DNA from: a phage
DNA: 64,000 nt
Sequence record: PZ019084.1
Direction: 5' to 3' (one strand)
Shown: positions 8,535 through 46,344 of the stretch, one piece after another
Layout of the letters: each line of letters starts with the position of its first letter
Numbering within the stretch: position 1 is the stretch's first letter
Notes under the pieces: model-generated
What the model was told of the DNA's origin: nothing
What the model saw: the letters and a program-made list of their open reading frames with translations, nothing else
The model's database searches: none
Made by a program: the position numbers and the translations under genes

Positions 8535-8612
8535 TTTCACCTCTTAGCTCAATTCATAGATCTATTATATCATAATATTTGAAGATCTATCTTAAAGCAT
8601 AGAGGATATCAG

Positions 8613-8882
8613 TTATCTAAGTAAGCAGTATGCTTGGAACACTTTCTCCATCATCTTTTTAAATTCATGAATATCTATGTAATGACTAGTTAAATCAGCA
8701 TGATATAAAAAGTCTAAAAACTTTTCATGCGTGCTAACATATTCAATTTCATTTAATTCAGAAACATGGCTTTCCCAATATCCAACACCAGTCTTATTTG
8801 GGAAAAATGAAATTTTCATATATTGGTCAACATAGAAAATTCCATAATTTTCAATAGTAATAGAAATATTAATAAATTTCAT
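8613..8882 (-). CDS. Hypothetical small protein
   Basis: 89 aa ORF in the 55-to-nrdH block of small early genes. Confidence 0.4.
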   Translation of the reverse strand: MKFINISITIENYGIFYVDQYMKISFFPNKTGVGYWESHVSELNEIEYVSTHEKFLDFLYHADLTSHYIDIHEFKKMMEKVFQAYCLLR

Positions 8883-11081: not shown

Positions 11082-11552
11082 TTAATCATGTTTCCACACC
11101 CCATCGGTATTTGACCAAAGTCGCTGATTATCTGATCCTCGCCACAGCTTTTTAGTCGGAAGATTTTTCTCATACTTCCCATCAATAATAACATCAACAT
11201 ATTTAAGCATTTCTAGTTGTTTAATATCTTCAAACTTGTATCCTGTCCACAACCAAATGCTTTTATTTGGATAAAGATTTTTTACCGTTTGAACAATACA
11301 ATGAACAACATCCCGGTTATCAGGATAAAGAGGGTCTCCTCCAGTTATAGTTAATCCTTCTATATAATCATTATTCAAACATTCAATTAATTGTTCTAGT
11401 GTTTCACCAGTGAATGGAACGCCATTTCTAGCATTCCATGTTGATTTATTATAACATCCTTCACATTTATGCAAACACCCCGTAACGAAAAGAACGACCC
11501 TGCATCCAGGGCCATTCACAAAATCACAGGGATAAAATCTATCGTAATTCAT
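11082..11552 (-). CDS. nrdG: Anaerobic ribonucleotide reductase activating protein NrdG (radical SAM)
   Basis: 156 aa; cysteine cluster GCLHKCEGCYNK; same size as T4 NrdG; directly downstream of nrdD. Confidence 0.9.
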   Translation of the reverse strand: MNYDRFYPCDFVNGPGCRVVLFVTGCLHKCEGCYNKSTWNARNGVPFTGETLEQLIECLNNDYIEGLTITGGDPLYPDNRDVVHCIVQTVKNLYPNKSIWLWTGYKFEDIKQLEMLKYVDVIIDGKYEKNLPTKKLWRGSDNQRLWSNTDGVWKHD

Positions 11553-13366
11553 TGGTGTTTAACCCTATGCATGATTTCTTTATTTTTGCCGAGATTAAAT
11601 CCACGTTCATTCGGATTTCCCAAATAACCACAAGTTCTTCTTATTGTGTTCATCTTTTTAGGATCAGTTTCTCCACAAATAGAACAAACAAACCCGTTTT
11701 CAGTAGGAGTCATTTCATGAGTACTTCCGCATGTAAAACATTTATCTACTGGCATATTAACACCAAAATAATCTAAATGTTGTGCAGCATAATCCCAGAC
11801 AGCCTCAAGACCTTTTAGGTTATTTTTCATATCAGGAAGTTCAACATAAGAAATGTGACCACCTGTCGCAATGAAATGATATGGGGCTTCGCGAGAAATC
11901 TTTTCAAACGGGGTGATATTTTCTTCTACTGAAACGTGGAAACTGTTAGTGTACCAGCCTTTATCAGTAACATCCTTTACACTTCCATATTTCTCAGTAT
12001 CAAGTTTACAGAAGCGATAGCACAGGTTTTCAGCAGGAGTAGAATACAAGCTAAAAGCAAAACCGGTTCTTTCAGTCCACTGCTTAAGACGAGCATTCAT
12101 TTTAGTTAAAATTTCCTGTCCAATATCACGACCGACAAGAATATTCAATTCGTGAATACCAATGTATCCTAGGGACACTGAACTTCTACCATTTTTAAAT
12201 AACTCAATTATGTCATCATCAGGTTTAAGACGAACCCCGAATGCACCTTCTTGGTAAAGAATAGGAGCAACAGTCGCTTTAACTCCTTTTAAGGAACTAA
12301 TTCTACACATCAAAGCTTCAAAACACAAATCCATTCGTTCATTGAACAATTCGGCAAATTTCTGTTCATTGAATTGTGTTCCAATATAAGAATCTAACGC
12401 AATACGAGGAAGATTCAGTGTTACAACACCAAGATTATTACGTCCATCAAGAATTTCATTACCAGTCGAATCTTTCCATACGCTCAAGAAACTGCGGCAA
12501 CCCATTGGAGAAACAGGAATAGATGAACCTGTGATAGCTTTATTATTCTTAACTGAAATAATATCAGGATACATTCTTTTGCTTGCGCATTCTAGAGCAA
12601 GCTGCTTAATATCATAGTTCGGATCGTCTTTATAAAGATTGACACCCTCTTCAATGAACATAACAAGTTTAGGGAAAATAGGAGTTATCCCATCACGACC
12701 AAGACCTTTAATACGATTTTTCAGAATTGCCTTCTGAATCATTCGTTCAGTCCAGTCAGTTCCCGTGCCAAACGTAATTGTTACAAAAGGCGTTTGTCCG
12801 TTTGAACTAAAGAGAGTATTTACTTCATATTCATAAGCTTGGAATGCATCGTATACGTCTTTTTCTGTTTTAGATTGGGCATAATTCAAAGCATCAGCGA
12901 TTTGCCATTTTTCTGCATCCTCAATATGTTTTGCATAGGTGCGTTTAACATAAGGAGAAAGTACTTTATCTACATTAGCAAAAGTCGTTCCGCCATACTG
13001 ATGTGAAGCAACCTGTGCGGTAATTTGTGCCATAATTGCAGTAGCAACACCAATCGATTTAGGCGTTTCAATTTGAGCATTACCTAGCTTAAATCCTTTT
13101 TCAAGCATTCCTTTTAAATCTACTAAACAGCAATTAGTAAATGGAAGAGCAGGGGAATAATCAATATCATGAAAATGGATAATTCCGCTTTCATGTGCTT
13201 TCATAATAAAAGACGGGACCATATTTTTGGCAATGTGCTTAGACACAATACCAGCCATAAGGTCCCGTTGAGTTGGAAAAACACGAGAATCTTTATTAGC
13301 ATTCTCGTTTAAAAGGTCTTTATTAGTTTTATGAATCAATCCTTCAATTTCTTTTTCAATTGTCAT
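11549..13366 (-). CDS. nrdD: Anaerobic ribonucleoside-triphosphate reductase NrdD, uninterrupted
   Basis: 605 aa continuous ORF; C-terminal glycyl-radical motif RRTCGYLG and zinc-ribbon cysteines (CFTCGS...CSICG). Confidence 0.9.
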   Translation of the reverse strand: MTIEKEIEGLIHKTNKDLLNENANKDSRVFPTQRDLMAGIVSKHIAKNMVPSFIMKAHESGIIHFHDIDYSPALPFTNCCLVDLKGMLEKGFKLGNAQIETPKSIGVATAIMAQITAQVASHQYGGTTFANVDKVLSPYVKRTYAKHIEDAEKWQIADALNYAQSKTEKDVYDAFQAYEYEVNTLFSSNGQTPFVTITFGTGTDWTERMIQKAILKNRIKGLGRDGITPIFPKLVMFIEEGVNLYKDDPNYDIKQLALECASKRMYPDIISVKNNKAITGSSIPVSPMGCRSFLSVWKDSTGNEILDGRNNLGVVTLNLPRIALDSYIGTQFNEQKFAELFNERMDLCFEALMCRISSLKGVKATVAPILYQEGAFGVRLKPDDDIIELFKNGRSSVSLGYIGIHELNILVGRDIGQEILTKMNARLKQWTERTGFAFSLYSTPAENLCYRFCKLDTEKYGSVKDVTDKGWYTNSFHVSVEENITPFEKISREAPYHFIATGGHISYVELPDMKNNLKGLEAVWDYAAQHLDYFGVNMPVDKCFTCGSTHEMTPTENGFVCSICGETDPKKMNTIRRTCGYLGNPNERGFNLGKNKEIMHRVKHQ

Positions 13367-13836
13367 TTTAAACTCTTTCTAAGCTGCTTCTTAAATGAAG
13401 CTATTAATTGTGTTTTGGTGTCAGATTCATTATATTCAAATCCTCTTTGAAGCATCTCAGCCATCATTTCCTCTTTTCCTAAACGAGAAAATTCCTTTGA
13501 TTTATCTCCAACGAAGTTAGGGTGAATATTATTTTGGGTGTAATCGGATTTTAAATAAGTAAGTAAATTTTCTAACCATTCAAGATAATCAACGCCTTGT
13601 CCCTTTAAGCCAGAACGATTAAATTTGTGCTTCATTTGACCTTCTGCAGCATTACACAGATTACATAGCAACCCACGTACCTTTCCTGCTTTTGGTCCAT
13701 TTAATTCATGGTCATGGTCAAGGTGATTAGCTTGAACATCAGGATTTAGTTCTCGTTGGCAAATTAAGCATTTACCGTTTTGTGCATTATAAAATTTCTG
13801 TTTTTCTTCTTTGTATAATTTGCCAGTCAATAACAT
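13363..13836 (-). CDS. 49: Endonuclease VII (Holliday junction resolvase) gp49
   Basis: 157 aa; MLLTGKLYKEEKQKFY...CLICQREL...HLDHDHELNG matches remembered T4 endo VII nearly exactly. Confidence 0.95.
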   Translation of the reverse strand: MLLTGKLYKEEKQKFYNAQNGKCLICQRELNPDVQANHLDHDHELNGPKAGKVRGLLCNLCNAAEGQMKHKFNRSGLKGQGVDYLEWLENLLTYLKSDYTQNNIHPNFVGDKSKEFSRLGKEEMMAEMLQRGFEYNESDTKTQLIASFKKQLRKSLK

Positions 13837-14776: not shown

Positions 14777-14786
14777 TTGTCACCAA

Positions 14787-14996
14787 TTAATTTCGCAATT
14801 TATTAAGTTCTTCATAATCAATCCAGGATTCTAATCCTGATGGCAAATCAGATTCAATTTCCCAAAGAAGTTCTTCAATTTTCTGAAGACGATCTAATTC
14901 TTCGGCAGGAATAGTAACCATTGACGGAGTTCTTGATACACTAATATCGTAAATCATATTTACCCCAGTTTGACCATGCAATCGCCATATTTCCAT
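14787..14996 (-). CDS. Hypothetical small protein
   Basis: 69 aa ORF. Confidence 0.35.
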   Translation of the reverse strand: MEIWRLHGQTGVNMIYDISVSRTPSMVTIPAEELDRLQKIEELLWEIESDLPSGLESWIDYEELNKLRN

Positions 14997-15175
14997 TTAG
15001 AAATAGACTTTTCACCGTTAGAATAATAAACTTCGAGTTTAGCACGATTATTTTTAATTTGAATAACCTTGGCTGTCATCAAAGTTCCATACCCGTAATA
15101 AACTGCAACCTCATCACCTACATATACCGCGCTTCCGCGGTAGTCATGGATATAATCAGTTCCTTCGAGCATCAT
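14960..15175 (-). CDS. Hypothetical small protein
   Basis: 71 aa ORF; stop overlaps next start. Confidence 0.35.
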   Translation of the reverse strand: MMLEGTDYIHDYRGSAVYVGDEVAVYYGYGTLMTAKVIQIKNNRAKLEVYYSNGEKSISKWKYGDCMVKLG

Positions 15176-22473: not shown

Positions 22474-23487
22474 TCATTTATAATAACTTCGGTGGTTTTC
22501 AAGATAAACCCTCTCAAGGAAGTCATCCCAGAAACCCATGTCTACTTTTTGCTGCATACCGTTCTTAGAAGCTTCAATGGATGCTGCTTCTACTTGATCG
22601 ACCACATCTTCCAAAAACTCTTGAACAGTTTTAAATGGATGTTTACCCAGCTTCACGTCGAGAATAAATGGAGCGTCTTGAAGTGGATAGACTAAGTCAC
22701 CAGTTTTGTAAATTTCCAATAGTTGGAGTCCACCACGACAAGCATGACTCAGAGCTTTCCAGTCAATGCCCTCATTCGCTTCAGCCTTACGAGCACGTTC
22801 GCCATATTCAGCATCTAATTTATTCAGTGACTGTTTAAGCTCGATAAGAGAAAGCGTTGTTTGATATTTACGACCCAACACAGTGTAGAACGTTTGTGGG
22901 CCTGTTTTCTCATGATTATGGAATACCCATTCACAGAATTCGTTCTCTGGAAGACGATGCTTAATATCTTCAACTTTAGTTCGACGAAGTCTATCAGGGA
23001 TTCCTTCTTGATAATCAACCCACTGATCGGGGATTTGATTAACTACTTTCAATACATCACGCAATGCGGCCAAACGAGAACCCTTGACGCCGTATTTAGA
23101 AGCTTGCTTGCGAACATATCCTAAATAGGATTTCATGTTAGTCGTATAAAAACGAGAACGATTGTCTTGAATAAACTTCCATACATCAGGCAAATCAGAT
23201 TTAACTACCAGTTCAGGTGGAGTGTGAAGCATATCCAATGCTACAGTTTCACCATCTGCTGCTAATTTAAAGAAATATTTAAGACTATATAGTTCATGGT
23301 CAATATCATCTTTAGTGTTTTTAGATGATGTATTGTTAGTGTTTTTGCTCATATGCTCTTTAACATTTCCGATAAGAATATCGCGAGCAGGAGGAACAAA
23401 GATTTCTTTAAAATCTACATCAGATTCTGGAGTAGAAGTTCCATAAAGATGACTACCAAAATAGCTTTTCATTACTGTTTTCATCAT
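22474..23487 (-). CDS. Predicted nucleotidyltransferase-fold protein (Pol-beta-like NTase motif)
   Basis: 337 aa; N-terminal FGSHLYGTSTPESDVDF fits the hG[GS]x(9-13)DhD NTase signature; helical C-terminal region. Confidence 0.5.
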   Translation of the reverse strand: MMKTVMKSYFGSHLYGTSTPESDVDFKEIFVPPARDILIGNVKEHMSKNTNNTSSKNTKDDIDHELYSLKYFFKLAADGETVALDMLHTPPELVVKSDLPDVWKFIQDNRSRFYTTNMKSYLGYVRKQASKYGVKGSRLAALRDVLKVVNQIPDQWVDYQEGIPDRLRRTKVEDIKHRLPENEFCEWVFHNHEKTGPQTFYTVLGRKYQTTLSLIELKQSLNKLDAEYGERARKAEANEGIDWKALSHACRGGLQLLEIYKTGDLVYPLQDAPFILDVKLGKHPFKTVQEFLEDVVDQVEAASIEASKNGMQQKVDMGFWDDFLERVYLENHRSYYK

Positions 23488-23945
23488 TCAGCCTTATATT
23501 CAATAACAGGACATACTTTAGCTTTACGCGCTTTTAAAAATTCGACGATAATAGATTTCTTGGGTTGAATAGGAGGTAAACCCTTATACGCCCTATCAAT
23601 ATTTTCTACATGTAAAGCATAATCCTTTTTCCATTTATAATCTTTATATTTTTCATGCAGTTGTGCAGGAATAACAAATGAACCAATAATAAGTAAAACA
23701 AGCAAAATGGCAAGTATAAATGCTGATGGAATAAGAGTCCATAAACTACCAAAAATAAGCCATTTCTGTATGATTTCTGCGCAGATAATAGTTAGACCTG
23801 CGAGCATAGTACATCCGAATAAAGAAACGAAAAATGTAGGGATAACAATAGACCAAAAATACGCGCACAGTGTCTTAGGTCGTTTCCATTCGTCGTTAAA
23901 CATTTTGAATAATTTATAATGCCAAGAGTTTTCATTAATAATCAT
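23484..23945 (-). CDS. Membrane protein
   Basis: 153 aa with at least three hydrophobic spans. Confidence 0.45.
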   Translation of the reverse strand: MIINENSWHYKLFKMFNDEWKRPKTLCAYFWSIVIPTFFVSLFGCTMLAGLTIICAEIIQKWLIFGSLWTLIPSAFILAILLVLLIIGSFVIPAQLHEKYKDYKWKKDYALHVENIDRAYKGLPPIQPKKSIIVEFLKARKAKVCPVIEYKAE

Positions 23946-23947
23946 AA

Positions 23948-24469
23948 TTATCCTTTCATTGAAGGTGTAACAGTTGTTAAATACTTAATCATAGCTTCAG
24001 CTTCTGATTTTGATAATGAAATTTCTCCACTGTTTTGACGAATAGAAATAAAATCCGGATGACGGTCACCACCAGCTTTTAAAACACACATATAAGTATC
24101 AGTTTCATCTTCAATATCTGAAATGATTGAAGCAGTTCCGCATGAATGCGGTTTTTGATAAATCAATGCAGCTTTTCTTCCACCGTTTGACTGTTCATAA
24201 ACTTTTAACACATCAAACAAATCACTTCTTTTATCAATAGCTAAGATGTTGTTTTCATCTTCAATGTTAAATCCTTCGGATACTTCATAAAGTGTCACCC
24301 ATAAATCACCTATATCGATAGTAGCATTTACTTTTCCATGGCTTTCAAGAGCATGACAAATTTTCTTGATTTCGTCATAACTCATTTTAATAATATCATC
24401 TCCTTGAATAAGGAAGATGTCATTTTTAAATTCAACACGAATTAAACCACTTTCACTTGAAATAAACAT
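23948..24469 (-). CDS. Hypothetical protein, paralog of the next gene
   Basis: 173 aa; C-terminal region resembles that of ORF 24476-25033 (SKSEAEAMIKYLTTVTPSM vs TKDEAIALKTYLDSVIPTM). Confidence 0.45.
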   Translation of the reverse strand: MFISSESGLIRVEFKNDIFLIQGDDIIKMSYDEIKKICHALESHGKVNATIDIGDLWVTLYEVSEGFNIEDENNILAIDKRSDLFDVLKVYEQSNGGRKAALIYQKPHSCGTASIISDIEDETDTYMCVLKAGGDRHPDFISIRQNSGEISLSKSEAEAMIKYLTTVTPSMKG

Positions 24470-26724: not shown

Positions 26725-26736
26725 AAAGGCCTCCTA

Positions 26737-26949: not shown

Positions 26950-26997
26950 ATATACATATACCCCTTTAGTTAGATAAACCTATTTATAACTTTTGCA

Positions 26998-27579: not shown

Positions 27580-27580
27580 C

Positions 27581-28611: not shown

Positions 28612-28955
28612 CTAGTACTCAATCCTCGATTATAAGAATCTACCAAACGGTCAACCATTGAATGACAAGCGGCTTTATCTTTCTCCTCCGCAACTGAACA
28701 TTCTAAGGTATTCCACTTTTTAGCATATCGTTTTAATAAAGTATCGTTCTTGTATCTACTTGTTTTATCTCTTTCTCCGTCTTTATATGCATATATTAAT
28801 TTCTGCGCAAATTCAGCTTGGCATGCTTTATTTTTCCCACAATAATCCGCGGCAGTACGGTTTACATACTCTCTAACTTCAGAATATGATATATCTGCTG
28901 ATGCAGAAGCAGAAAATGAAATTAATCCTATACATAAAACCAAAATTTTAGTCAT
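28608..28955 (-). CDS. Secreted protein with signal peptide (position and size of T4 vs; identity unconfirmed)
   Basis: 115 aa; N-terminal signal peptide MTKILVLCIGLISFSASASA. Confidence 0.4.
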   Translation of the reverse strand: MTKILVLCIGLISFSASASADISYSEVREYVNRTAADYCGKNKACQAEFAQKLIYAYKDGERDKTSRYKNDTLLKRYAKKWNTLECSVAEEKDKAACHSMVDRLVDSYNRGLSTR

Positions 28956-29493
28956 TTACTATTTCCAAAAGTTTATTATTTTTAAGGTAGTTAGCCTTTT
29001 CTAGGACTTCAGAAGCATATTTAGAACCTGCTTTAACATTCCATCCCGAATTATAAGAGGATATTGCTTTTCTTATATCACCCTTATGTATATTTAACCA
29101 ATAAGAAAGTTCAATGTACGCCCAGGAAGCTGAATTGGACCGTTTATTCAACATTCTTTTTATTTCAGCATCAGTCATATTATAACCAAGTTCCTTAACT
29201 CTTGCTCGCATAGTTGGCAAATAATTTTGGAACATTCCATAGGCATGATGCTTTGGTTTAGATTTTAAATTAACTCCGGCAGAGCTTTCTTGCCATAAAA
29301 TAGCAGCCATTATATGACCTAATCCGCTCTTGTGGATGTTTTTGTGTGTTTTATATTTTCCATCCTTAGAAAATTGTTCCCCGAATTGATACGCGTAACG
29401 CATGTTATCGAGTTGGACATTACTGAAAGTATGCTCGGAGCTATGCGCCATCATTGAAATGGCCAATAGACCAGCGAGTAGTGCTTTTCTCAT
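28948..29493 (-). CDS. Secreted lytic-transglycosylase-like protein
   Basis: 181 aa; signal peptide MRKALLAGLLAISMMAHS; SLT-like segment AAILWQESSAGVN...YGMFQ. Confidence 0.5.
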   Translation of the reverse strand: MRKALLAGLLAISMMAHSSEHTFSNVQLDNMRYAYQFGEQFSKDGKYKTHKNIHKSGLGHIMAAILWQESSAGVNLKSKPKHHAYGMFQNYLPTMRARVKELGYNMTDAEIKRMLNKRSNSASWAYIELSYWLNIHKGDIRKAISSYNSGWNVKAGSKYASEVLEKANYLKNNKLLEIVND

Positions 29494-29500
29494 GCTTACC

Positions 29501-29962
29501 TCATTGAGTTTTAATTACTGCTTTAGAAGCCTTTCCCGGTAAACGACGACTGTTGATAATTGCCATCCTGCATTGAAGCGACGGGTCTTTGAACTTCGCA
29601 TTAGGTTTACAAACTGTAAATCCAAGCCAAAGATTTCCATCTGTGATTTCTAAACGCCCAGGACGATATTCAACCCCATCAATAAAATCCTCGTCAATGT
29701 CAGGACGCGGAGGCATACTCAGGAATTCATTAACTTCTAAAACATGGTCTTTTATTTTGTGGAATAATTCAAAAACATATGTCTCATCAATCTCCCGTTG
29801 AATTGCACGATCAAGGAGATGCTGAGAATATTTTAGATGAAACGATGAGACCCCTGCTGCTTTTGATGCCTCACGAATCTCATTGTTAATTTGACGAAAC
29901 TCCGACTCAAAGTGACGACGAAGCTTATTTCGACGGATAAAAACTTCTGTGTTGATAGTCAT
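29501..29962 (-). CDS. regB: Endoribonuclease RegB
   Basis: 153 aa, same length as T4 RegB; GAGGAG RBS; early promoter immediately upstream. Confidence 0.85.
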   Translation of the reverse strand: MTINTEVFIRRNKLRRHFESEFRQINNEIREASKAAGVSSFHLKYSQHLLDRAIQREIDETYVFELFHKIKDHVLEVNEFLSMPPRPDIDEDFIDGVEYRPGRLEITDGNLWLGFTVCKPNAKFKDPSLQCRMAIINSRRLPGKASKAVIKTQ

Positions 29963-29989
29963 GTTATTCTCCTCTTAACTGATAGAAAA

Positions 29990-30019
29990 ATTATACCACA
30001 GTCAAGAGGAAAAGTAAAC
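29990..30019 (-). promoter_or_regulatory. T4-type early promoter (regB)
   Basis: Plus strand attataccaca...aaagtaaac. Confidence 0.55.
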
Positions 30020-30021
30020 AG

Positions 30022-30342
30022 TTATTCTTTAAATCTAATCAATTTATTCATAGACTTTGTAACTTCTGCACGAACCTCATGTAAGTTTTTAAGCTGTTCA
30101 AGACGCTGCTCGTAGTAAGCAATTTCATCTTCTTCGAGACAGTCTTGTGAATCTTCTTTAAGATAACGTGCATAATCCTGGAAAGCTTTACGGACTACTT
30201 CTTGGAAGTCATCAAGACTTTGAATTTTCTTAGGAGCAACAGATACACGACGAGGGGCAGTATAATACTCATAACCAAACCCTGCGCTTAATTGAGCCAT
30301 TAATATTTTTCCTCTGGTTGGAACACAGCACGACAAGCCCAC
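30022..30342 (-). CDS. Hypothetical protein
   Basis: 106 aa ORF. Confidence 0.4.
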
Positions 30343-30566
30343 ATACTAGCTTCTTTGAGTTTCGTTTTAGCAATAGTTAACTGATCGAGGCTTTCAGCAT
30401 AATTCTTTGCGAATTCGCAGTCTTCACAATTATCTAGTGCTTCCCAGAATTCGTCATATAAAGCGTCAAAGATAAGTCCTAAACGAACTTCAGCGTCTTT
30501 GATAGCATTCACTTTACCGATTTTCTCTTCAGTGTGCGGCTTATAACCTTTAATGTCTTCAATCAT
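30300..30566 (-). CDS. Hypothetical small acidic protein (positional candidate for T4 vs.4)
   Basis: 88 aa ORF; assignment by gene order only. Confidence 0.4.
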
Positions 30567-30780
30567 ATTCTACTTCCTCACCAGTACATAAATCATATTC
30601 AACTAAACGAATAGGTTCATGAATGCCATATCCTTGAACAGAAATTTCTGTCGTAGGATAAATTCCATCAATATCACCCATGGTCCACGCTTCATTAAAT
30701 TGCTGTTCGCCTGAATTACTAAACCACTCGGCGAAAGCATTTAACACATCTTTAGAACCTTCAATAATTATCTTTGCCAT
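30559..30780 (-). CDS. Hypothetical small protein
   Basis: 73 aa ORF. Confidence 0.4.
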   Translation of the reverse strand: MAKIIIEGSKDVLNAFAEWFSNSGEQQFNEAWTMGDIDGIYPTTEISVQGYGIHEPIRLVEYDLCTGEEVEYD

Positions 30781-31142
30781 TACAAGCTCTCAGTAAAGGT
30801 ACGAGCGATAACGTCGCGCTGCTGTTCCGGAGTCAGAGAGTTAAAGCGAACTGCATAACCGGATACACGGATGGTCAGCTGCGGATATTTTTCCGGATGC
30901 TTAACTGCATCTTCCAGAGTTTCACGACGCAGAACGTTAACGTTCAGGTGTTGACCACCTTCAATTTTAACTGTAGGCTGTTGTTCAATTTCAATTTCAC
31001 GGGTGTGCAAACCGTAGAAAATTTCTGGGTCTACAAAAGAGTCCTCTTTAAAAGTTTTAGAGACAATAATTCGTGCCTGAATACCATCTTCAAAATAAAT
31101 AGTACCTTTATGTGTGCCTTCAAGAATTTGATATGCTTTCAT
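30780..31142 (-). CDS. Autonomous glycyl-radical cofactor (GrcA/YfiD-like)
   Basis: 120 aa; C-terminal [60 protein letters not shown] matches my memory of E. coli GrcA, including the RVSGY radical motif. Confidence 0.85.
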
Positions 31143-31148
31143 ATAACC

Positions 31149-31481
31149 TCAATTAGAAAATAAATTTATCCAAGACTGTTCTTTAATTAAAAATGGCTCA
31201 GAATCATATGCCATTAAACTTTGGGTGATTAGTCCTTTAAAAGGCCCATCAATAAATTCCATGGTAAAATATGGAATTTTATTCATTAATCTTGCATTAG
31301 GAGCAGTGCACAAAACTCTGCATCCTTTGAATACGCCTTTTTGTAATTTGTATTGCTTAGGATAAAATTCGCTCAAGACGTTGTTATTTGCCAAAATTTC
31401 AAAATGATTCACCAATTTATTTTTAATAGTTTTTGGCGAAAAATAAAGATATTCGAAAAGTTGCGTATCTGTCATCATTGC
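31149..31481 (-). CDS. Hypothetical protein
   Basis: Start set at internal MMTDTQLFEYL to avoid a 55 nt overlap with the upstream gene. Confidence 0.35.
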   Translation of the reverse strand, partial: AMMTDTQLFEYLYFSPKTIKNKLVNHFEILANNNVLSEFYPKQYKLQKGVFKGCRVLCTAPNARLMNKIPYFTMEFIDGPFKGLITQSLMAYDSEPFLIKEQSWINLFSN

Positions 31482-32062
31482 ATTCCAATTACGAAAAACT
31501 GTGGACGAGTAATACCACCAATGCAACATTTACTATTGCAGCAGTGTTGCACAGTTTCAATATGAATATCGTAAATTTTATCCATATCAGGAGATTTAAC
31601 AGGCTCATCGATTATATACAAGATTCGAGAAAGCGATAAACCTCTGAACTTGCTACCTCTATTACCAACAAAACTACGGACAGAATCGGTAAATAAGCGA
31701 AATCGAATATCATCGCTAGAATAACGAGAAAATTCTTTTTTAATGTGGCCCGCAGAAATTTTAGCGTAAGCTGAAGTATTAGAAAGAACAATAACTGTTC
31801 CACCGTCATACAGCCAATTAGCAGCAAAATTAGTCACAGCAGTTGATTTACCAGATTGGCGTCCACCATCTAGTCGAAGTGTACAATATTGTTTAAGCAA
31901 GTCTTCAAATGGTGGGATATAATCGTTTTTACAAATTTCTTCTACTCTAGCATCAGAATGGTGTGTAAAAGCATTCATCAGGGATAGATAAGGACCAGTT
32001 AAAAATGTTCTCATTTTATTCTCTCTAAATTTGGGCCATTCCATGGCGCATGAATTGTCCAT
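31475..32062 (-). CDS. Small P-loop NTPase
   Basis: Walker A GGRQSGKST and Walker B LYIIDEP; true start may be the MRTFLTG Met at 32014 (GAGAGAA RBS). Confidence 0.5.
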   Translation of the reverse strand: MDNSCAMEWPKFRENKMRTFLTGPYLSLMNAFTHHSDARVEEICKNDYIPPFEDLLKQYCTLRLDGGRQSGKSTAVTNFAANWLYDGGTVIVLSNTSAYAKISAGHIKKEFSRYSSDDIRFRLFTDSVRSFVGNRGSKFRGLSLSRILYIIDEPVKSPDMDKIYDIHIETVQHCCNSKCCIGGITRPQFFVIGMQ

Positions 32063-32167
32063 TTCTGTATTTACCCATTACCGCACTTGGGCTCGACCTT
32101 ATTACAGGTTGGCGGGAATCCCTCATAGAATCATGAGGTCCAGCTTGTTCCCATATTTCTTATTTGC

Positions 32168-32641
32168 TTATTTGAATGATTTGACGTACTGAATAGAGCC
32201 TTTGCTATTCACGAAAGCGATTTTACCATTTTTATTATACATGGTAGCAGTACGCTGATAACCATAAGTTTGCTTACCAGATTGATAACCAACTAATGCA
32301 AAATTATCTTCACCCATTTTATTCTGTTTAGCGCGGATGCGTTCATGACCGTGTGCCATAAGAACCTTAGCGTCGCCAGTTGCAATGGATCTACGAGTTT
32401 TTTCATCTTCAACTGTATTAACAAAATCGTCAAATGAATCAAATTTAGCATGGGATTTATTATACAGTTTTCCATCTACTGCATAATTATATCCTTGTAC
32501 ATCCATCTCAACTTCTGTACCGTCATCCAATACAGCAGTGATTTTTTGACCTTTTTTAAATTTCAAAAGATCAGTAAAAGATTCAGCAATAATTTGAGAA
32601 TTAATAGCTGCTTCAGTAATAAATTCTTGGTATGTTTTCAT
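32168..32641 (-). CDS. Internal protein with capsid targeting sequence (ipII locus)
   Basis: 157 aa; N-terminus MKTYQEFITEA is the T4 CTS pattern; located between ipIII and the position where denV would be. Confidence 0.6.
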   Translation of the reverse strand: MKTYQEFITEAAINSQIIAESFTDLLKFKKGQKITAVLDDGTEVEMDVQGYNYAVDGKLYNKSHAKFDSFDDFVNTVEDEKTRRSIATGDAKVLMAHGHERIRAKQNKMGEDNFALVGYQSGKQTYGYQRTATMYNKNGKIAFVNSKGSIQYVKSFK

Positions 32642-32747
32642 GTATATCCTTTAAATGTAAATAATTTTATTCTTTAAGTTTGGGACAATTCACACATGAA
32701 TTGTCCATTTCTGTATTTATCTATTACCGAGTTCGGACTTGGCTTTA

Positions 32748-33326
32748 TTAATTACCACGGGCTGCATTAGCAACGGCGTAAGCATACTGAACATTAGCGT
32801 CCTTAAACGTACCTTTAGAGGTATCTATTTCTGCCTTAAAGCCGCCTTTAGCCATAACATCAGCAAATTCTTTACGGAAGGCCATTGCATCAAGACCTTT
32901 CCATGATGATTTATGCTTGGCGAATTCAAGACCAGCGTAGTTGACAGCCTTAGCTAATTTATTATCAATAACCCATTTACCAGCTTTAGGCACAAACACC
33001 GGGCCTTTCTGTTTAGAGAATAGTTTTAAATTCCAGCGACGAAGGTCACCGTCAGCTTTAACAAAAGCTGCATCCAAGTTACTAGCAACAACATCTTGAA
33101 TATGGCCAAATTTAAGCCCATCAACTTCAATATTTAGATCAGTACGCCAGCGAAGTCCTTCCCAAGCGAAAGCTTTAAAGTCGGAAGCTTTTGTGGCTAG
33201 ATATCGTTCAAGTGGAGCAGTTTTAGGGTCAAAGCCGTTTCCACCACGATAGTTCCACTCGTCCTTATTAATGCCTTTGGCCTTTTCCGCAGAAGCTTCA
33301 GCGATAAATTCTTTATACGTTTTCAT
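32748..33326 (-). CDS. ipIII: Internal protein III
   Basis: 192 aa; N-terminal CTS MKTYKEFIAEA; position next to e and size match T4 IPIII. Confidence 0.75.
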   Translation of the reverse strand: MKTYKEFIAEASAEKAKGINKDEWNYRGGNGFDPKTAPLERYLATKASDFKAFAWEGLRWRTDLNIEVDGLKFGHIQDVVASNLDAAFVKADGDLRRWNLKLFSKQKGPVFVPKAGKWVIDNKLAKAVNYAGLEFAKHKSSWKGLDAMAFRKEFADVMAKGGFKAEIDTSKGTFKDANVQYAYAVANAARGN

Positions 33327-33361
33327 GTGTTTCCTTTAAATATTTTAATTAGTAACTATGA

Positions 33362-33397: not shown

Positions 33398-33928
<531 letters not shown>

Positions 33929-36811: not shown

Positions 36812-36854
36812 AGTATTTCCTTAGGTTAATTGAGATTTAAAATCCGTGGGAGTA

Positions 36855-37031
36855 TTATACTCCAAAGAGTTTATAAACTATTTCGACATCGCCTTTTGCT
36901 GCTTTATAACCTTCAGCCCAGGATACAACCGAATTTTTATCTGAAGATTCAAACTCTGGCATTGGGCTTTCACCAATATTCACGCAGTATGTTTCTTCAT
37001 TCTCGTCAAACCAAATAATTAAAGTAGTCAT
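36855..37031 (-). CDS. Small protein (58 aa), not in ORF track
   Basis: Minus-strand ATG at 37031 preceded by GGAGAAATAA RBS; translates MTTLIIWFDENEETYCVNIGESPMPEF... Confidence 0.3.
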   Translation of the reverse strand: MTTLIIWFDENEETYCVNIGESPMPEFESSDKNSVVSWAEGYKAAKGDVEIVYKLFGV

Positions 37032-37065
37032 TTATTTCTCCGTTTCTGTATTTGTTTTGATAAGT

Positions 37066-37095
37066 CTATAATAACACCATCCTTGGTGTTTGTAC
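37066..37095 (-). promoter_or_regulatory. Early promoter-like element with spacer stem-loop
   Basis: Plus strand ctataataacaccATCCTTggtgtttgtaca: hairpin cacca/tggtg around ATCCTT next to a TATTATAG -10-like box. Confidence 0.4.
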
Positions 37096-37105
37096 ATCAT
37101 TATTT

Positions 37106-37438
37106 TTAATTTTTCCAACTTAACAACTTGTAGTGTCCTTCATTCATACGTGGTTTATCCCAAGAAATACTAATATATGATTCACTGTCAATAGAAGTCG
37201 CCGGGTTTTTCTCTACCGTAAGACCTTCACTTTCCAGCCATTCAATAGTATTTGCGCATAAATCGGAAGAACACCTCATCGGAAACCGGCAAGATTTTTC
37301 ACCTTTAGATGCAGCGTTATACATCTTTTCTAAAATACGCTTTTGCACGTTTTTAAAAATAGTTTCAGCGGATTCTTCAGATTTTTTATTCAGTTCAATA
37401 TAAAGACTCATAACATTCTTCTCATTAATAGGGCTCAT
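37106..37438 (-). CDS. Hypothetical protein
   Basis: 110 aa ORF. Confidence 0.4.
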   Translation of the reverse strand: MSPINEKNVMSLYIELNKKSEESAETIFKNVQKRILEKMYNAASKGEKSCRFPMRCSSDLCANTIEWLESEGLTVEKNPATSIDSESYISISWDKPRMNEGHYKLLSWKN

Positions 37439-37941: not shown

Positions 37942-37960
37942 CCCTATCATTTAGATAGGG
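37942..37960 (-). terminator. Hairpin plus U-run (intrinsic terminator)
   Basis: Minus strand ccctatctaaatgatagggcTTTTTgg just downstream of ORF 37969-38532. Confidence 0.55.
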
Positions 37961-37968
37961 ATTTAAAA

Positions 37969-38532
37969 TTATTTATCTAGTTTAGTTATTATAGCTTCTG
38001 CGGCAGCTTTTAGCTTAGATGCGGTGTTAATACGATTTTTAATTTCAGTATACGCATCGCCAAGAACATCAAGGCTATCAGAATAAACACTTACACTATT
38101 GCGTTCGCTATTTGAAATAGAACCTTTAGTTTTACGATCAAAATCGGTGTACACGTCTTGAAGATCACGGGCTGCCTTCTTTGCATCATCCAATGCGTCA
38201 AGAGCTTTATTCAAAGCATTAACGTATTTTTTAGTGTCAAACATATTCTTAGAAATTTTAACAGGTGCGCGTTCAGGAGTAGCTAATGCAGATTTAGGAA
38301 CCTGAGCGCCAGATGCCAATTTCTTAGAAATTTTGAAAAACGCTTTATTGAATTTATTTTCTTGACTCATCGTAAAAGAACTATTATCGATGTTGTACAT
38401 TTCAATAGCTTTAGCTTTCCACTTAAGAAAATTGCCGCGGTCTTTTGGGTCCAAGTGGAAGAATACTTTAGTAAGATCTGCTTCAGATGGTAATTTTGCT
38501 GCTTCGGTTAAAAATTCGGCATAGGTTTTCAT
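37969..38532 (-). CDS. Candidate capsid-targeted internal protein (CTS-like N-terminus)
   Basis: 187 aa; N-terminus MKTYAEFLTEAAK resembles the CTS of ipII/ipIII; lysine/alanine-rich. Confidence 0.5.
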   Translation of the reverse strand: MKTYAEFLTEAAKLPSEADLTKVFFHLDPKDRGNFLKWKAKAIEMYNIDNSSFTMSQENKFNKAFFKISKKLASGAQVPKSALATPERAPVKISKNMFDTKKYVNALNKALDALDDAKKAARDLQDVYTDFDRKTKGSISNSERNSVSVYSDSLDVLGDAYTEIKNRINTASKLKAAAEAIITKLDK

Positions 38533-38627
38533 TTAAAATCCTTGAAATAATTTATCAGTTGGTTATTAATTATTTATTACTTTGTTATTATCCGTAACAG
38601 CATTCTCTATGTGATTCAAACTAAAAA

Positions 38628-38650
38628 GCCCCAACCTTTCGGTCGGGGCT
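38628..38650 (-). terminator. Hairpin plus U-run (intrinsic terminator)
   Basis: Minus strand agccccgaccgaaaggttggggcTTTTTag. Confidence 0.6.
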
Positions 38651-38657
38651 AAGAATG

Positions 38658-39131
38658 TTATTTGATTTGTTTAGCAGACCAAATGCGGTCTTTAATAATT
38701 TTTTGGATGTCTTCAACATACTCAAGAGAGTGAACATGTGGATTATCTTTGAAACTATAAGCACGGGCTAACTTTTGGCCTTCGGTTTTGATTACTAAAA
38801 GCTCTTTAAGGATAGCTTCATATTTAGCGATAATTCCTTTAACGATATTTTTTTCTTGTGCAGCTTTAGGATCTGCTTTAGGAGCAGGTTTACCCGAAGC
38901 CTTTGCAAAAGCAGCACCAGTAGCAACTAAACTTTTCCAGGCCATACTAACCGCATTTCCCGTAAATCCTTCTGCTTTCATGTCGCGAGCAAATTGGAAT
39001 CGTGATTCGTCAGAAGCATCTTTATAGGAATATTTACCCGCTGCAATGGCTGCTTTTGCGACAGCTTGAATTTCGGTGCTAGATGCTTCATTTAACACCG
39101 CTTCATTTAAAAATTGAGCATATGATTTCAT
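38658..39131 (-). CDS. Candidate capsid-targeted internal protein (CTS-like N-terminus)
   Basis: 157 aa; N-terminus MKSYAQFLNEAVLNEA resembles the CTS; late promoter TATAAATA 40 nt upstream. Confidence 0.5.
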   Translation of the reverse strand: MKSYAQFLNEAVLNEASSTEIQAVAKAAIAAGKYSYKDASDESRFQFARDMKAEGFTGNAVSMAWKSLVATGAAFAKASGKPAPKADPKAAQEKNIVKGIIAKYEAILKELLVIKTEGQKLARAYSFKDNPHVHSLEYVEDIQKIIKDRIWSAKQIK

Positions 39132-39171
39132 CTTATTTCCTGTTTTAATTCGTAGATTTAATATACTACTA

Positions 39172-39179
39172 TATTTATA
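39172..39179 (-). promoter_or_regulatory. Late promoter (TATAAATA)
   Basis: Plus strand tatttata = TATAAATA on coding strand, between terminator hairpin and ORF 38658-39131. Confidence 0.6.
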
Positions 39180-39889: not shown

Positions 39890-39965
39890 TGGTCGAGGCA
39901 GTAGGGATCGAACCTACGACCTAGGACTTAGAAGGTCCTTGCTCTTCCTTCTGAGCTATGCCCCG
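39890..39965 (-). tRNA. tRNA-Arg (anticodon TCT)
   Basis: Minus strand folds as cloverleaf: acceptor CGGGGCA/TGCCTCG, anticodon loop CTTCTAA, T-arm GGTTCGATCC, CCA encoded. Confidence 0.8.
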
Positions 39966-40046
39966 TAATTGGGGTGACCGATGGGAGTCGAACCCATGAC
40001 TACGAGAATCACAATCTCGAGTTCTACCAACTGAACTACGGCCACA
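39966..40046 (-). tRNA. tRNA-His (anticodon GTG)
   Basis: Acceptor GTGGCCG/CGGTCAC, D-arm GTTCAGTTGGTAGAAC, anticodon loop TTGTGAT, T-arm GGGTTCGACTCCC, CCA encoded; no encoded G-1. The tRNA itself is approximately 39971-40046. Confidence 0.6.
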
Positions 40047-40159
40047 TTAATACCTACTCCAACAATCAAGATGTCTTCACACGAAATTAAGAGAAGAGTG
40101 ATCAGTTCAACCCCTATAATCGCGTCAAGTAGATATTAATGTGACAGTTGTCACAAATT

Positions 40160-40234
40160 TGGCGGACGTGATAGGATTCGAACCTATAACCAATCGCTTA
40201 ACAGGCGATCGCTCTGCCATTGAGCTACACATCC
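40160..40234 (-). tRNA. tRNA-Asn (anticodon GTT)
   Basis: Acceptor GGATGTG/CACGTCC, anticodon stem ATCGC/GCGAT with loop CTGTTAA, T-arm AGGTTCGAATCCT, CCA encoded. Confidence 0.7.
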
Positions 40235-40238
40235 AAAT

Positions 40239-40325
40239 TGGTGGGGAGTGATGGAGTCGAACCACCCGAGTCGCAATGACAATGGATTTACAGTCCACAC
40301 CGCTACCTCTACGGGATAACTCCCC
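40239..40325 (-). tRNA. tRNA-Tyr (anticodon GTA), long variable arm
   Basis: Acceptor GGGGAGT/ACTCCCC, anticodon loop CTGTAAA, long variable arm, T-arm GGTGGTTCGACTCCATC, CCA encoded. Confidence 0.65.
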
Positions 40326-40338
40326 TTAATTCTTAATT

Positions 40339-40413
40339 TGGTGGCCCTGGGTGGAATTGAACCACCATCTGGCGATTATGAGTCGCTTGCTTGAACCTTC
40401 CAGCTACAGGGCC
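40339..40413 (-). tRNA. tRNA with CAT anticodon (Ile, as in T4, or Met)
   Basis: Acceptor GGCCCTG/CAGGGCC, anticodon loop CTCATAA, T-arm GGTGGTTCAATTCCACC, CCA encoded; position matches T4 tRNA-Ile. Confidence 0.65.
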
Positions 40414-40414
40414 T

Positions 40415-40490
40415 TGGTGCTGATTGACGGAATCGAACCGCCGACCTTCTCATTACAAGTGAGTTGCTCTACCTACTGAGCTAAATCAGC
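40415..40490 (-). tRNA. tRNA-Thr (anticodon TGT)
   Basis: Acceptor GCTGATT/AATCAGC, D-arm GCTCAGTAGGTAGAGC, anticodon loop CTTGTAA, T-arm GGCGGTTCGATTCCGTC, CCA encoded. Confidence 0.8.
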
Positions 40491-40495
40491 AAAAC

Positions 40496-40585
40496 TGGCG
40501 GAGGCGATAGGATTTGAACCTATGAGTCGCCGGAGCGACTGCCGGTTTTCAAGACCGGTGCATTAAACCACTCTGCCACGCCTCC
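40496..40585 (-). tRNA. tRNA-Ser (anticodon TGA), long variable arm
   Basis: Acceptor GGAGGCG/CGCCTCC, anticodon stem CCGGT/ACCGG with loop CTTGAAA, long variable arm, T-arm AGGTTCAAATCCT. Confidence 0.8.
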
Positions 40586-40587
40586 AG

Positions 40588-40661
40588 TCTCCATACAAGG
40601 ATTTGAACCTTGGACCTCCTGATCCCAAATCAGGCGCTCTACCAAACTGAGCTACACGGAG
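40588..40661 (-). tRNA. tRNA-Pro (anticodon TGG), CCA not encoded
   Basis: Acceptor CTCCGTG/TATGGAG, anticodon stem CCTGA/TCAGG with loop TTTGGGA, T-arm AAGGTTCAAATCCTT. Confidence 0.75.
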
Positions 40662-40671
40662 TAAATTAAAT

Positions 40672-40745
<74 letters not shown>

Positions 40746-40750
40746 AAATT

Positions 40751-40837
40751 TGGTGCGAGAAGTGGGACTCGAACCCACAAGGAAATCATTCCGCAGCATT
40801 TTAAGTGCTGTGCCTTTACCAATTTGACCATTCTCGC
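40751..40837 (-). tRNA. tRNA-Leu (anticodon TAA), long variable arm
   Basis: Acceptor GCGAGAA/TTCTCGC, anticodon loop CTTAAAA, long variable arm, T-arm GGGTTCGAGTCCC, CCA encoded. Confidence 0.8.
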
Positions 40838-40838
40838 G

Positions 40839-40911
40839 CTGGGAATAAAGGACTTGAACCTTTGCATCCTGGAATCAAAATCCAGTGCCTTACCAACTTG
40901 GCTAATTCCCA
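40839..40911 (-). tRNA. tRNA-Gln (anticodon TTG), CCA not encoded
   Basis: Acceptor TGGGAAT/ATTCCCA, anticodon stem CTGGA/TCCAG with loop TTTTGAT, T-arm AAGGTTCAAGTCCTT. Confidence 0.75.
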
Positions 40912-44429: not shown

Positions 44430-45254
44430 TTAGATATTTGACCAGACTTTGTTTGCAGAGAAACGTTTTCCTTTTGAAACGAACTGCTGAAGTGGCATTA
44501 ACACAACGTTCGCCCAGTCTTTCGGGGCGATTTCAACAAGGCTACCCATAATATTACCGGGTATATATGCCTTAATCATTTGGTCTGCACCCCTAAATCC
44601 TTTCACTTGACTCCAATCAATTTTTAATTTCGTTTTATTAGTAATAGTAGGCGTATTTGAATATTGCTTTAAAAGCTCTTCTAGAAATTGCTGACGAGCT
44701 TTAGGTGGAATATAGTGCAAGTTCAATCCGTACATTAAATTATGTTTACCTAAACCGAGGTAAATTATCAAAGGAAATTTATCCCAGTAAGGAAGAGTTT
44801 CTTTGTGTTTAGCATCATAAGCAAAAGCATATATTCGTCCCGGCTGAGGGCGAACAACTTTATGTCCTTTTACTTGCTTAATAGTTTCAGCAAACCACTT
44901 TCTGGTTTTATTATTAATTGCTGCACCTTCATTACGAATTTTATCACGCAATGTTTGCCTGAATGAATTTATCATAAGCAGTTGTCTTTCTTGCTTATTG
45001 AGTTTATTCATTGGTTTTGATTCAAGCTTTTGAATCTTTTCAGCCGTTTTAATTCCTGAAGCATATTTTGACATTGCCGAAGTAAACGTAGAGTATTTGA
45101 TTCCTCTTTCTTCAGCAAATTGCTTTCCTGTCATTCCTTTTGCTTTGGCCTTTCTGTATTCAAGACCTATCTGAATCCATTTCTTTTCGTTTAATGATTG
45201 CTTAACCTTTGGAACTTGGGGAGTGCTTTCATTAATTATTTGAAAAATAGCCAT
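44430..45254 (-). CDS. 2: DNA end protector gp2
   Basis: 274 aa, same as T4 gp2; position between genes 3 and 4. Confidence 0.8.
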
Positions 45255-45706
45255 TATGCCCCCTTAAAGCCAAGAGCTCGTAATCCATCTTCTGTTAGAA
45301 TTCTAAATTTTATTCCACGCTTTTCAGCTAAAGCTTGCGCTGCTTTCCATTTGTCAGTATTAACGGAATATGTATAAATTTCATTCATAAATCTTTTCTT
45401 CGCTGCAGTTGTTAGATGTGCTGGTTTAACTGGTGGTTGTGTTTCTTTTTTAGGTTTTATTTCAATAAAAAATTCTTGTCCAGAAGAATCTTTCATCCAA
45501 ATGTCCATGAAGTATCTACGTTTTTTCCCTTCTGCATTACAAAAATAAGGAATTACTGCTGTTTCACTACCCCATGCAATAATTTCTGGATTTTTATCTA
45601 ACCATTCAAAAAAGAATTTTTCCCAATTTGATCTATACGTAATTTTTTTAGGGTCACCTCTATATTTTGATATATTTTTAGGAACCCATTTTCCAGAATA
45701 TGCCAT
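45254..45706 (-). CDS. 4: Head completion protein gp4
   Basis: 150 aa, same as T4 gp4; late promoter directly upstream. Confidence 0.8.
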
Positions 45707-45717
45707 TGGATTCTCCT

Positions 45718-45740
45718 TATAAATAGATAATATATTTATA
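45718..45740. promoter_or_regulatory. Divergent late promoters for gene 53 (plus) and gene 4 (minus)
   Basis: TATAAATA on plus strand at 45718-45725; tatttata (TATAAATA on minus) at 45733-45740. Confidence 0.7.
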
Positions 45741-45753
45741 AACAGGAGGGCCC

Positions 45754-46344
45754 ATGCTCTTTACATTTTTTGATCCGATTGAATATGCGGCCAAAACGGT
45801 GAATAAAAACGCGCCGACTATTCCTATGACAGATATTTTTAGAAACTATAAAGACTATTTTAAACGCGCTCTTGCGGGATACCGCTTACGTACTTACTAT
45901 ATCAAAGGTTCACCACGCCCGGAAGAATTAGCAAATACTATATATGGAAATCCACAGTTGTATTGGGTTTTATTGATGTGTAATGATAATTATGATCCGT
46001 ATTATGGATGGATTACTTCGCAAGAAGCTGCTTATCAAGCATCTATACAAAAATATAAAAATGTAGGTGGAGACCAAATAGTATATCACGTGAATGAGAA
46101 TGGTGAAAAATTTTATAATTTAGTATCATACGATGATAATCCATATGTTTGGTATGACAAAGGCGATAAAGCTAGAAAATATCCTCAATATGAAGGAGCA
46201 CTTGCTGCTGTTAATACGTATGAAGATGCTGTTCTTGAAAATGAAAAACTTCGTCAAATAAAAATAATAGCAAAATCAGACATCAATTCATTTATGAACG
46301 ACCTTATACGTATAATGGAGAAATCTTATGGAAATGATAAGTAA
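45754..46344 (+). CDS. 53: Baseplate wedge protein gp53
   Basis: 196 aa, same as T4 gp53; first gene of the plus-strand baseplate module. Confidence 0.8.
   Translation: MLFTFFDPIEYAAKTVNKNAPTIPMTDIFRNYKDYFKRALAGYRLRTYYIKGSPRPEELANTIYGNPQLYWVLLMCNDNYDPYYGWITSQEAAYQASIQKYKNVGGDQIVYHVNENGEKFYNLVSYDDNPYVWYDKGDKARKYPQYEGALAAVNTYEDAVLENEKLRQIKIIAKSDINSFMNDLIRIMEKSYGNDK

Follow-up and report, generated by a model that had tools for sequence, protein, structure and literature searches.

The P-loop gene beside the internal-protein locus of a T4-like phage is vs.8, and the neighbouring denV was probably lost by cassette exchange

Does a compact P-loop NTPase take the place of endonuclease V, the product of denV, in this relative of phage T4? 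The question arises from 64,000 nucleotides of phage DNA (record PZ019084.1; the whole stretch is called the window below), in which an earlier note had described a small Walker A/B ORF where denV would be expected and had listed denV, mobD and the nrdD intron as missing. We hold with high confidence that both features of the locus are best explained together as follows: the ORF is the orthologue of T4 vs.8 and encodes a terminase-ATPase-like accessory protein, and denV was lost separately, through exchange of an ip4 cassette at the internal-protein (IP) locus. The gene name to be used is vs.8 (terminase-ATPase-like accessory protein) with its start at position 32014, which matters little beyond annotation.

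Whole-window blastn identified a Tequatrovirus segment collinear with T4 31500..96193, and the best matches in the phage collection form a mosaic at 95-97% identity; the phage is related to T4 without being T4 itself, as the note had allowed. Around the ORF, the genes follow one another on the minus strand in the order regB, vs.3, vs.4, vs.5, vs.6, vs.7, vs.8, a 157-aa gene, ipIII, e and nudE (Table 1). By tblastn, homologues of the vs.8 product were found in 1010 phage records, nearly all of them T4-like myoviruses of enterobacteria, and the one identical protein is that of Shigella phage sb3. The product also matches PHROG_1488, the Vs.8 family, over its full length (E 1.1e-78, profile positions 2-177 of 177). 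Its position is orthologous as well, since the gene lies 5' of vs.7 with a 4-nt overlap, which is likewise 4 nt in the T4 annotation, and adjoins the IP/denV/e locus. The ORF is the orthologue of T4 vs.8 (AAD42678; PHROG_1488), an early accessory gene conserved in T4-like phages. In T4 the order is vs.7 - vs.8 - denV - ipII - ipIII - e, with vs.8 and denV side by side; T4 thus carries the same NTPase gene at the same spot beside denV, and the NTPase is therefore no substitute for denV. The statement in the note that the NTPase stands there "instead" falls with this comparison, T4 itself having the gene in that place.

Table 1. Features of the vs.8-e locus and of two further loci in the window (positions are those of the window)
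Feature	Position	Strand	Remarks
nrdD	11549..13366	-	one uninterrupted 605-aa ORF without group I intron or I-TevII; T4 44815..45849 missing
Two unrelated ORFs of unknown function, 153 and 173 aa	23484..24469	-	at the T4 mobD position (blastn against T4)
vs.7, 109 aa	31149..31478	-	98% identity to T4 Vs.7; start overlaps vs.8 stop by 4 nt (ATGA)
Maximal ORF, 195 codons	31475..32062	-	real, not a chance ORF
vs.8 CDS as most likely translated, 179 aa	31475..32014	-	T4 Vs.8 87% aa, phage sb3 100% (tblastn)
Walker B ILYIIDE with catalytic Asp-Glu	31604..31624	-	read from the sequence
Walker A / P-loop GGRQSGKS	31844..31867	-	read from the sequence; Arg-Gln of the terminase type precedes GK(S/T)
First 16 codons of the maximal ORF, probably untranslated	32015..32062	-	frame upstream of the ATG varies
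Spacer, ip4 stop to vs.8 start, 153 nt	32015..32167	-	marks the left edge of the variable cassettes
Direct repeat D1, copy 1, 56 nt	32049..32104	.	3' flank of the ip4 cassette; 82% identical to copy 2
Segment without T4 counterpart, 453 nt, body of ip4	32157..32609	-	whole-window blastn; T4 has 64943..65686 (denV+ipII) there instead
ip4, internal (injected) head protein, 157 aa	32168..32641	-	capsid-targeting leader MKTYQEFITEA at the N-terminus
Direct repeat D2, copy 1, 47 nt	32610..32656	.	ip4 ribosome-binding site and capsid-targeting leader; 85% identical to copy 2
Direct repeat D1, copy 2	32695..32750	.	3' flank of the ipIII cassette
ipIII, internal head protein	32748..33326	-	92% identity to T4 IpIII
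Direct repeat D2, copy 2	33295..33341	.	5' end of ipIII
e, T4 lysozyme	33398..33892	-	conserved gene flanking the cassettes on the right; 97% identity to T4 e

The Vs.8 family is small: when 1.8 billion representative proteins were searched exhaustively with a profile, 51 clusters emerged, almost all of them with proteins of 150-185 aa. Two remote members that were looked up both lie in T4-like contigs; one of them, P0047 with 29% identity, occupies the same syntenic slot in a divergent contig, again without denV. The gene is the first of a same-strand row running from vs.8 to vs.3; vs.6 in this row encodes a GrcA-like glycyl-radical protein, and Vs.3 is TadIV-1, an inhibitor of type IV Thoeris (PMC13243611).

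The 5' end of the gene is likely over-called in the 195-codon ORF, and we place the start of vs.8 at position 32014, where the ATG encodes M17 of the maximal ORF. All of 17 homologues, down to 41% identity, have this start Met, and the PHROG_1488 match begins only at residue 19 of the long ORF (residues 19-195). Upstream of the conserved ATG the length varies, T4 having 8 nt and Shfl2 1 nt more than the window, and the stretch is therefore read in three different frames. T4 Vs.8 is annotated with 219 aa, of which the first 40 residues come from the conserved upstream spacer; residues 1-32 match the window at 97% identity, in another frame. The difference of 8 nt together with this shift of frame indicates that the 40-residue N-terminal extension of the T4 protein is non-coding.

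The two ATPase motifs that the note had recognised in the ORF at 31475-32062 are indeed present and are under strong conservation. In 41 homologues, the Walker A residues G51, R52, Q53, G55 and K56 are conserved at 90% or above, and in 17 close homologues the Walker B residue E137 is invariant and D136 is conserved at 90% or above. Some remote family members have neither the Walker A Lys nor the Walker B Glu, so that catalysis is not universally required in the wider Vs.8 family. For Vs.8 itself, the conserved catalytic residues suggest that it binds ATP and probably hydrolyses it. The AF2 model (pLDDT 80.7, pTM 0.81) is a single alpha/beta domain in which five strands alternate with helices. 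Foldseek matched this model to the first RecA-like domains of SF1/SF2 helicases and to terminase ATPase domains (7ks4, 4znk, 5hd9) with TM-scores of about 0.4-0.5 overall, the terminase domains scoring about 0.42-0.48 and no better than the helicase domains, and also to many small uncharacterised proteins of large myoviruses. Two tandem RecA-like domains, as in SF1/SF2 helicases, were not found, the model being a single domain that Foldseek aligns with the first helicase domain only.

Searches with the single Vs.8 sequence returned little: scans against Pfam, NCBIfam and PADLOC gave sub-threshold matches or none, with weak P-loop matches only; the match to Pfam PF03237 (Terminase_6N) stayed below the gathering threshold (14.6 bits vs 22), and phmmer against the PDB yielded nothing useful. 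A Pfam "Conotoxin" match was discarded as a Cys-rich artefact of the variable C-terminal loop. The homology to the T4 large terminase gp17 emerged only with a family profile of 41 sequences, an earlier hhalign comparison with a shallow profile of 17 sequences having reached a probability of 11.6%. With the 41-sequence profile, the top PDB matches in hmmsearch were T4 gp17 entries (E 5.7e-5), and hhalign aligned Vs.8 residues 32-147 with residues 142-266 of the gp17 N-terminal domain at a probability of 91.9% (E 7.1e-7), pairing GGRQSGKS with gp17 SRQLGKT and ILYIIDE with gp17 MIYIDE. In addition, PHROG_2 (terminase large subunit) matches the Vs.8 product (E 5e-6), and sub-threshold Terminase_6N matches were obtained for 20 of the 41 family members.

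On these profile comparisons, we classify Vs.8 as a stand-alone homologue of the gp17 ATPase subdomain I and not as a terminase. It has in common with gp17 (Terminase_6N; PDB 2o0h, 3cpe, 3ezk) the Arg-Gln-x-Gly-Lys-Thr/Ser P-loop and the hhhhDE motif, but it measures only about 179 aa and has neither subdomain II nor the RNase H-like nuclease domain. Vs.8 ends after the fifth strand, at residue 179, and the alignment stops at residue 266 of the 610 residues of gp17. The gene neighbourhoods differ too, vs.8 lying among early accessory genes and gp17 among late packaging genes. Vs.8 alone would presumably be incapable of packaging DNA. The homology itself is already published: PMC13601566 (Nat Commun, August 2026) presents vs.8 as ATPase-like, uncharacterised and a homologue of the ATPase of the T4 terminase.

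The function of Vs.8 is a question for all members of the family, that of T4 among them, and not one that the window raises on its own. The copy of T2 is split over three frames and that of T6 is missing, which suggests that Vs.8 is a dispensable accessory protein. The terminase-like fold, the patchy distribution and the neighbourhood of vs.3, the gene of TadIV-1, most likely point to a role in the conflict between phage and host, where Vs.8 would meet terminase-sensing immune receptors as a terminase look-alike. The T4 allele of vs.8 triggers the immune sensor EcAvs2 when the two are co-expressed (PMC13601566). The small phage proteins Ksap1 and Ksap2 of the same study resemble Vs.8 in that they have a terminase-ATPase-like sheet, are reported triggers of Avs2, are restricted to particular lineages and are not terminases; the likeness is drawn by description, and for vs.8 the data comprise co-expression toxicity and an AlphaFold 3 model only (PMC13601566).

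A tentative possibility within this frame is that Vs.8 serves as an anti-defence decoy, a terminase mimic made early that would occupy or mis-trigger receptors of the Avs or Upx type, or block another defence, before the late terminase appears. Such a role would suit a homologue of the gp17 ATPase subdomain whose gene stands in the same-strand vs.3-vs.8 row with a proven anti-defence gene (vs.3), and the dispensability and patchiness of vs.8, a pseudogene in T2 and deleted in T6, are usual for accessory counter-defence genes. The authors of PMC13601566, who leave the role of vs.8 open, raise the idea of an anti-defence protein themselves. However, the sole experimental datum is activation of EcAvs2 and not its inhibition, and since this activation harms the phage, it argues against Vs.8 being a simple decoy or inhibitor. 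Moreover, neither PADLOC nor any other search returned a match tying Vs.8 to a known anti-defence family, and the conserved catalytic residues suggest an enzymatic role and not a purely steric one.

The same residues would be at home in a protein of DNA packaging or DNA metabolism, which might assemble with gp17, gp16 or the portal or act on nucleic acid as a minimal loader or helicase-like ATPase: translocating ASCE ATPases typically have the Arg-Gln P-loop and the DE Walker B, and the fold is like that of the first RecA-like domains of SF1/SF2 helicases and of terminase ATPases. We nevertheless consider this role unlikely, because the AF2 model shows a lone RecA-like domain, lacking both a second domain and a module for nucleic-acid binding, and because vs.8 is lost in T6 and broken in T2, both of which package DNA normally. 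The timing also speaks against it. The packaging genes of T4 are expressed late and the accessory genes of the vs region early, and it is the latter that Vs.8 has as neighbours.

The second part of the question concerns denV. No DenV homologue was found in the 64-kb window, either by tblastn with T4 DenV and with the sb3-type DenV (an allele class that matches T4 DenV at about 78%) or by blastn with both genes, and the absence noticed earlier is borne out with both alleles. The sole DenV match below E=1 in the window covers 49 residues (E 5e-4) in a stretch collinear with T4 gene 49 (endonuclease VII); it is a short local similarity and not a denV. Nor did tblastn and blastn detect DenV anywhere in the complete genome of Shfl2, a phage with the identical locus and with 95% identity to a 901-nt junction probe. 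In every record inspected that has denV, the gene lies inside the vs.8-e locus. Given the lack of DenV in Shfl2 and the confinement of denV to this locus in the inspected records, it is very likely, short of proof, that the whole phage, of which 64 kb are visible, has no denV. That the gene sits outside the window is very improbable: the window is part of a genome and denV is movable, being next to vs.8 in T4 and between ip4 and e in sb3, but both of these places, like those in all other records inspected, are within the locus, and the complete genome of Shfl2 with its identical locus has none.

The DNA that occupies the place of denV in the window is not vs.8 but a 157-aa gene whose product matches Pfam DUF7412 (E 6e-96) and PHROG_3155 "internal virion protein" (E 6e-102), is 100% identical to a T2 protein and is annotated as Ip4 in Shfl2. 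The capsid-targeting leader and the IP family match make the product of 32168..32641 a T-even internal protein. In blastn, collinearity with T4 extends from window position 24451 to 32156, which corresponds to the denV stop codon of T4, and resumes at window position 32610, equal to T4 65687, inside the first 32 nt of ipII, i.e. in the ip leader. Since the 453-nt segment between these two break points is the body of ip4, the denV+ipII block of T4 is exchanged for ip4 here. The reading that a novel compact NTPase replaced denV and marks a special lineage has in its favour the missing denV and a P-loop ORF that comes next after the IP genes on that side. It is refuted by the T4 annotation and the alignment: T4 carries vs.8 and denV side by side, the window gene is 87% identical to T4 vs.8, and the DNA replacing denV+ipII (32157..32609) is ip4.

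Examination of the flanks revealed two pairs of direct repeats, D1 and D2 (Table 1), the first of which was also seen as a blastn match to T4 64808..64890. The blastn break point at 32610 coincides with the edge of the first D2 copy. The fillings between the vs.8 spacer and e vary among phages: denV-ipII-ipIII in T4, ip4-denV in sb3 and many others, ip4 alone in T2, and ip4-ipIII in the window. The window shares its arrangement, vs.8-ip4-ipIII-e, with at least nine phages (13 records), among them ECML-134, Shfl2, ECO07P2 and Yersinia phage PST. We propose that the ipII+denV block was swapped for a single ip4 cassette by homologous recombination at D1, D2 and the spacer, with the spacer upstream of vs.8 as the left exchange flank and the ip-gene leader with its ribosome-binding site as the right one; the recombination break points are placed from the alignments and would lie within these flanks. 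The absence of denV would then follow from the make-up of the neighbouring IP locus, which consists of exchangeable cassettes with repeated flanks, and denV appears to behave here as one more cassette of that locus.

Such exchange is already known as IP polymorphism and is ordinary biology. A repeat-flanked, PeSL-like shuffling of cassettes at the variable IP loci of T-even phages was described by Repoila et al. 1994, according to the passage that summarises their work in Arbiol et al. 2010 (PMC2839356), and the polymorphism is cited again in a passage of PMC12373910. The locus in the window shows no essential difference from these polymorphic loci: it has the same interchangeable ip cassettes, leader and repeated flanks, and Ip4 is a catalogued variant. 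It illustrates neatly how cassettes are exchanged in the internal-protein region of T-even phages.

The spacer upstream of vs.8 is nearly identical in T4, Shfl2, sb3 and the window, though the gene upstream of it differs (denV in T4, ip4 in the others). It presumably carries the vs.8 promoter and ribosome-binding site. A T4 fragment with the vs.8 promoter has been cloned, and this promoter was used to express Vs.3 to Vs.8 individually from plasmids (PMC13243611). When the coding strand of the spacer was scanned by consensus, neither a sigma-70-like promoter nor a terminator was recognised. We also considered a structured RNA, but an Rfam scan gave no match at E up to 10 besides chance snoRNA matches, and the predicted fold was no better than that of shuffled sequence (z = -0.47). 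The spacer may be regarded as a putative conserved regulatory and recombination element.

A broader and rather doubtful idea joins the two halves of the locus: Vs.8 would be an early mimic of the terminase ATPase that subverts terminase-sensing immunity (Avs1-3, Upx or an unknown sensor), and the spacer upstream of its gene would be a fixed recombination anchor for swaps of IP/denV cassettes. If this were true, a single site would let phages exchange UV repair for one or another anti-restriction internal protein; Ip1, Ip2 and Ip3 are inhibitors of GmrSD restriction enzymes, each of a different one (PMC12373910). Earlier papers already contain, at least in outline, both the immune-mimic idea and the spacer-anchor idea.

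The note had further suggested that the phage belongs with the T2/T6-type lineages, which holds in part for T2 and not for T6. The locus of T2 (AP018813) reads vs.7 - frameshifted vs.8 - ip4 - e and, like the window, lacks denV and encodes the identical Ip4; it differs from the window in that ipIII is not present there and vs.8 is frameshifted twice, so that it runs through three reading frames, whereas the window has an intact vs.8 and has kept ipIII. T6 has regB directly beside e and lacks vs.3-vs.8, denV, ipII and ipIII altogether, a gap that agrees with a T4-specific segment of about 3 kb (PMC13243611). By its gene order, the locus is of the Shfl2/ECML-134/PST type, with a T2-like ip4 allele and the T2-like lack of denV, and the exact arrangement is that of neither T2 nor T6. 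Without a pyrimidine-dimer glycosylase, the phage can reasonably be expected to show the higher UV sensitivity of T2; the predicted lack of pyrimidine-dimer excision repair, again as in T2, would be relevant where the phage is used under UV exposure. Vs.8 itself is unrelated to UV repair.

Two other differences from T4 that the note had listed were confirmed by the comparison. The nrdD gene has no intron, the T4 segment 44815..45849 being missing from its single ORF, and no match to I-TevII was obtained in the window. Likewise mobD is absent, and mobB, mobC, segB and segC are also absent from the window. The T4 segment 56449..57258, which holds mobD, is replaced by window positions 23489..24450. 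The larger of the two ORFs there, of 173 aa, was considered as a paralogue of MobD.1 and rejected by comparison. Shfl2 has the same pair of ORFs at the mobD position.

The spacer immediately 5' of vs.8 is nearly unchanged across T4, Shfl2, sb3 and the window despite the different upstream gene, and its conservation among these phages exceeds that of the adjoining coding DNA. In the T4 annotation, the N-terminus of Vs.8 is the translated counterpart of this spacer. A search of the window spacer against Rfam returned no matches, its RNA fold was not significant, and no consensus promoter was found in it. It may be where the vs.8 promoter is located, and it may also act as a fixed recombination anchor for the cassette locus. 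Each internal-protein cassette is flanked by two families of direct repeats (32049-32104/32695-32750 and 32610-32656/33295-33341).

Features of the window discussed here, with positions and strands
Feature	Position	Strand	Remark
HNH (Mob-like) homing-endonuclease ORF, 238 aa	1801..2517	+	opposite strand
ORF, 153 aa, hydrophobic	23484..23945	-	in place of T4 mobD
ORF, 173 aa	23948..24469	-	in place of T4 mobD
vs.3	30022..30300	-	retained
vs.6	30780..31142	-	retained; Pfam Gly_radical, E = 2e-18
Spacer 5' of vs.8	32015..32167	-	153 nt
Perfect hairpin, 10 bp	32683..32706		between ipIII and ip4
Eleven tRNA genes (Arg, His, Asn, Tyr, Met, Thr, Ser, Pro, Gly, Leu, Gln)	39890..40911	-

The same locus was also compared in T2 and T6. 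In T2 (AP018813, 5757..6400), vs.8 is broken by two frameshifts into three reading frames, and ip4 is the sole gene between vs.8 and e. In T6 (AP018814, 4490..5507), e comes directly after regB; therefore, vs.3-vs.8, denV, ipII and ipIII are all absent there.

Three remote homologues of Vs.8 (P0056, P0058 and P0060) have His in place of the Walker A Lys (SGHS/T) and are devoid of the Walker B Glu. Because these two residues have been lost, some members of the wider Vs.8 family are probably catalytically inactive. Regarding the neighboring genes, the C-terminal half of the window vs.6 product appears to be nearly the same as E. coli GrcA, the glycyl-radical cofactor. T4 vs.3 codes for TadIV-1, a type IV Thoeris sponge (PMC13243611).

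Residues 56-101 of T4 DenV matched window positions 13378..13524 (minus strand) with 41% identity over 49 residues (E = 5e-4). This match, which is also present in Shfl2, falls where the window is collinear with gene 49 of T4 (endonuclease VII). Local similarity between EndoV and EndoVII has been remarked on in older literature.

With regard to homing endonucleases, the HNH ORF sits in an insertion of ~790 bp between genes 45.2 and 46 that has no counterpart in T4. Its N-terminus shares 37-53% identity with T4 MobB, MobC and MobD; its 3' end and the start called for gene 46 overlap. The pair of ORFs at the mobD position is the same in Shfl2, and neither ORF had a match in NCBIfam. The 173-aa product was also considered as a paralogue of MobD.1, which was rejected.

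Several further differences from T4 were observed. The tRNA genes outnumber the eight of T4, and, unlike T4, the window lacks segB and tRNA-Ile. Non-T4 DNA of ~1.2 kb is found at 37960..39177. More short segments without a T4 counterpart lie at 14783..15171, 8607..8868 and 36827..37408; among them, gene 49.3 and e.7 are replaced, and one is an insertion of ~260 bp after gene 55.
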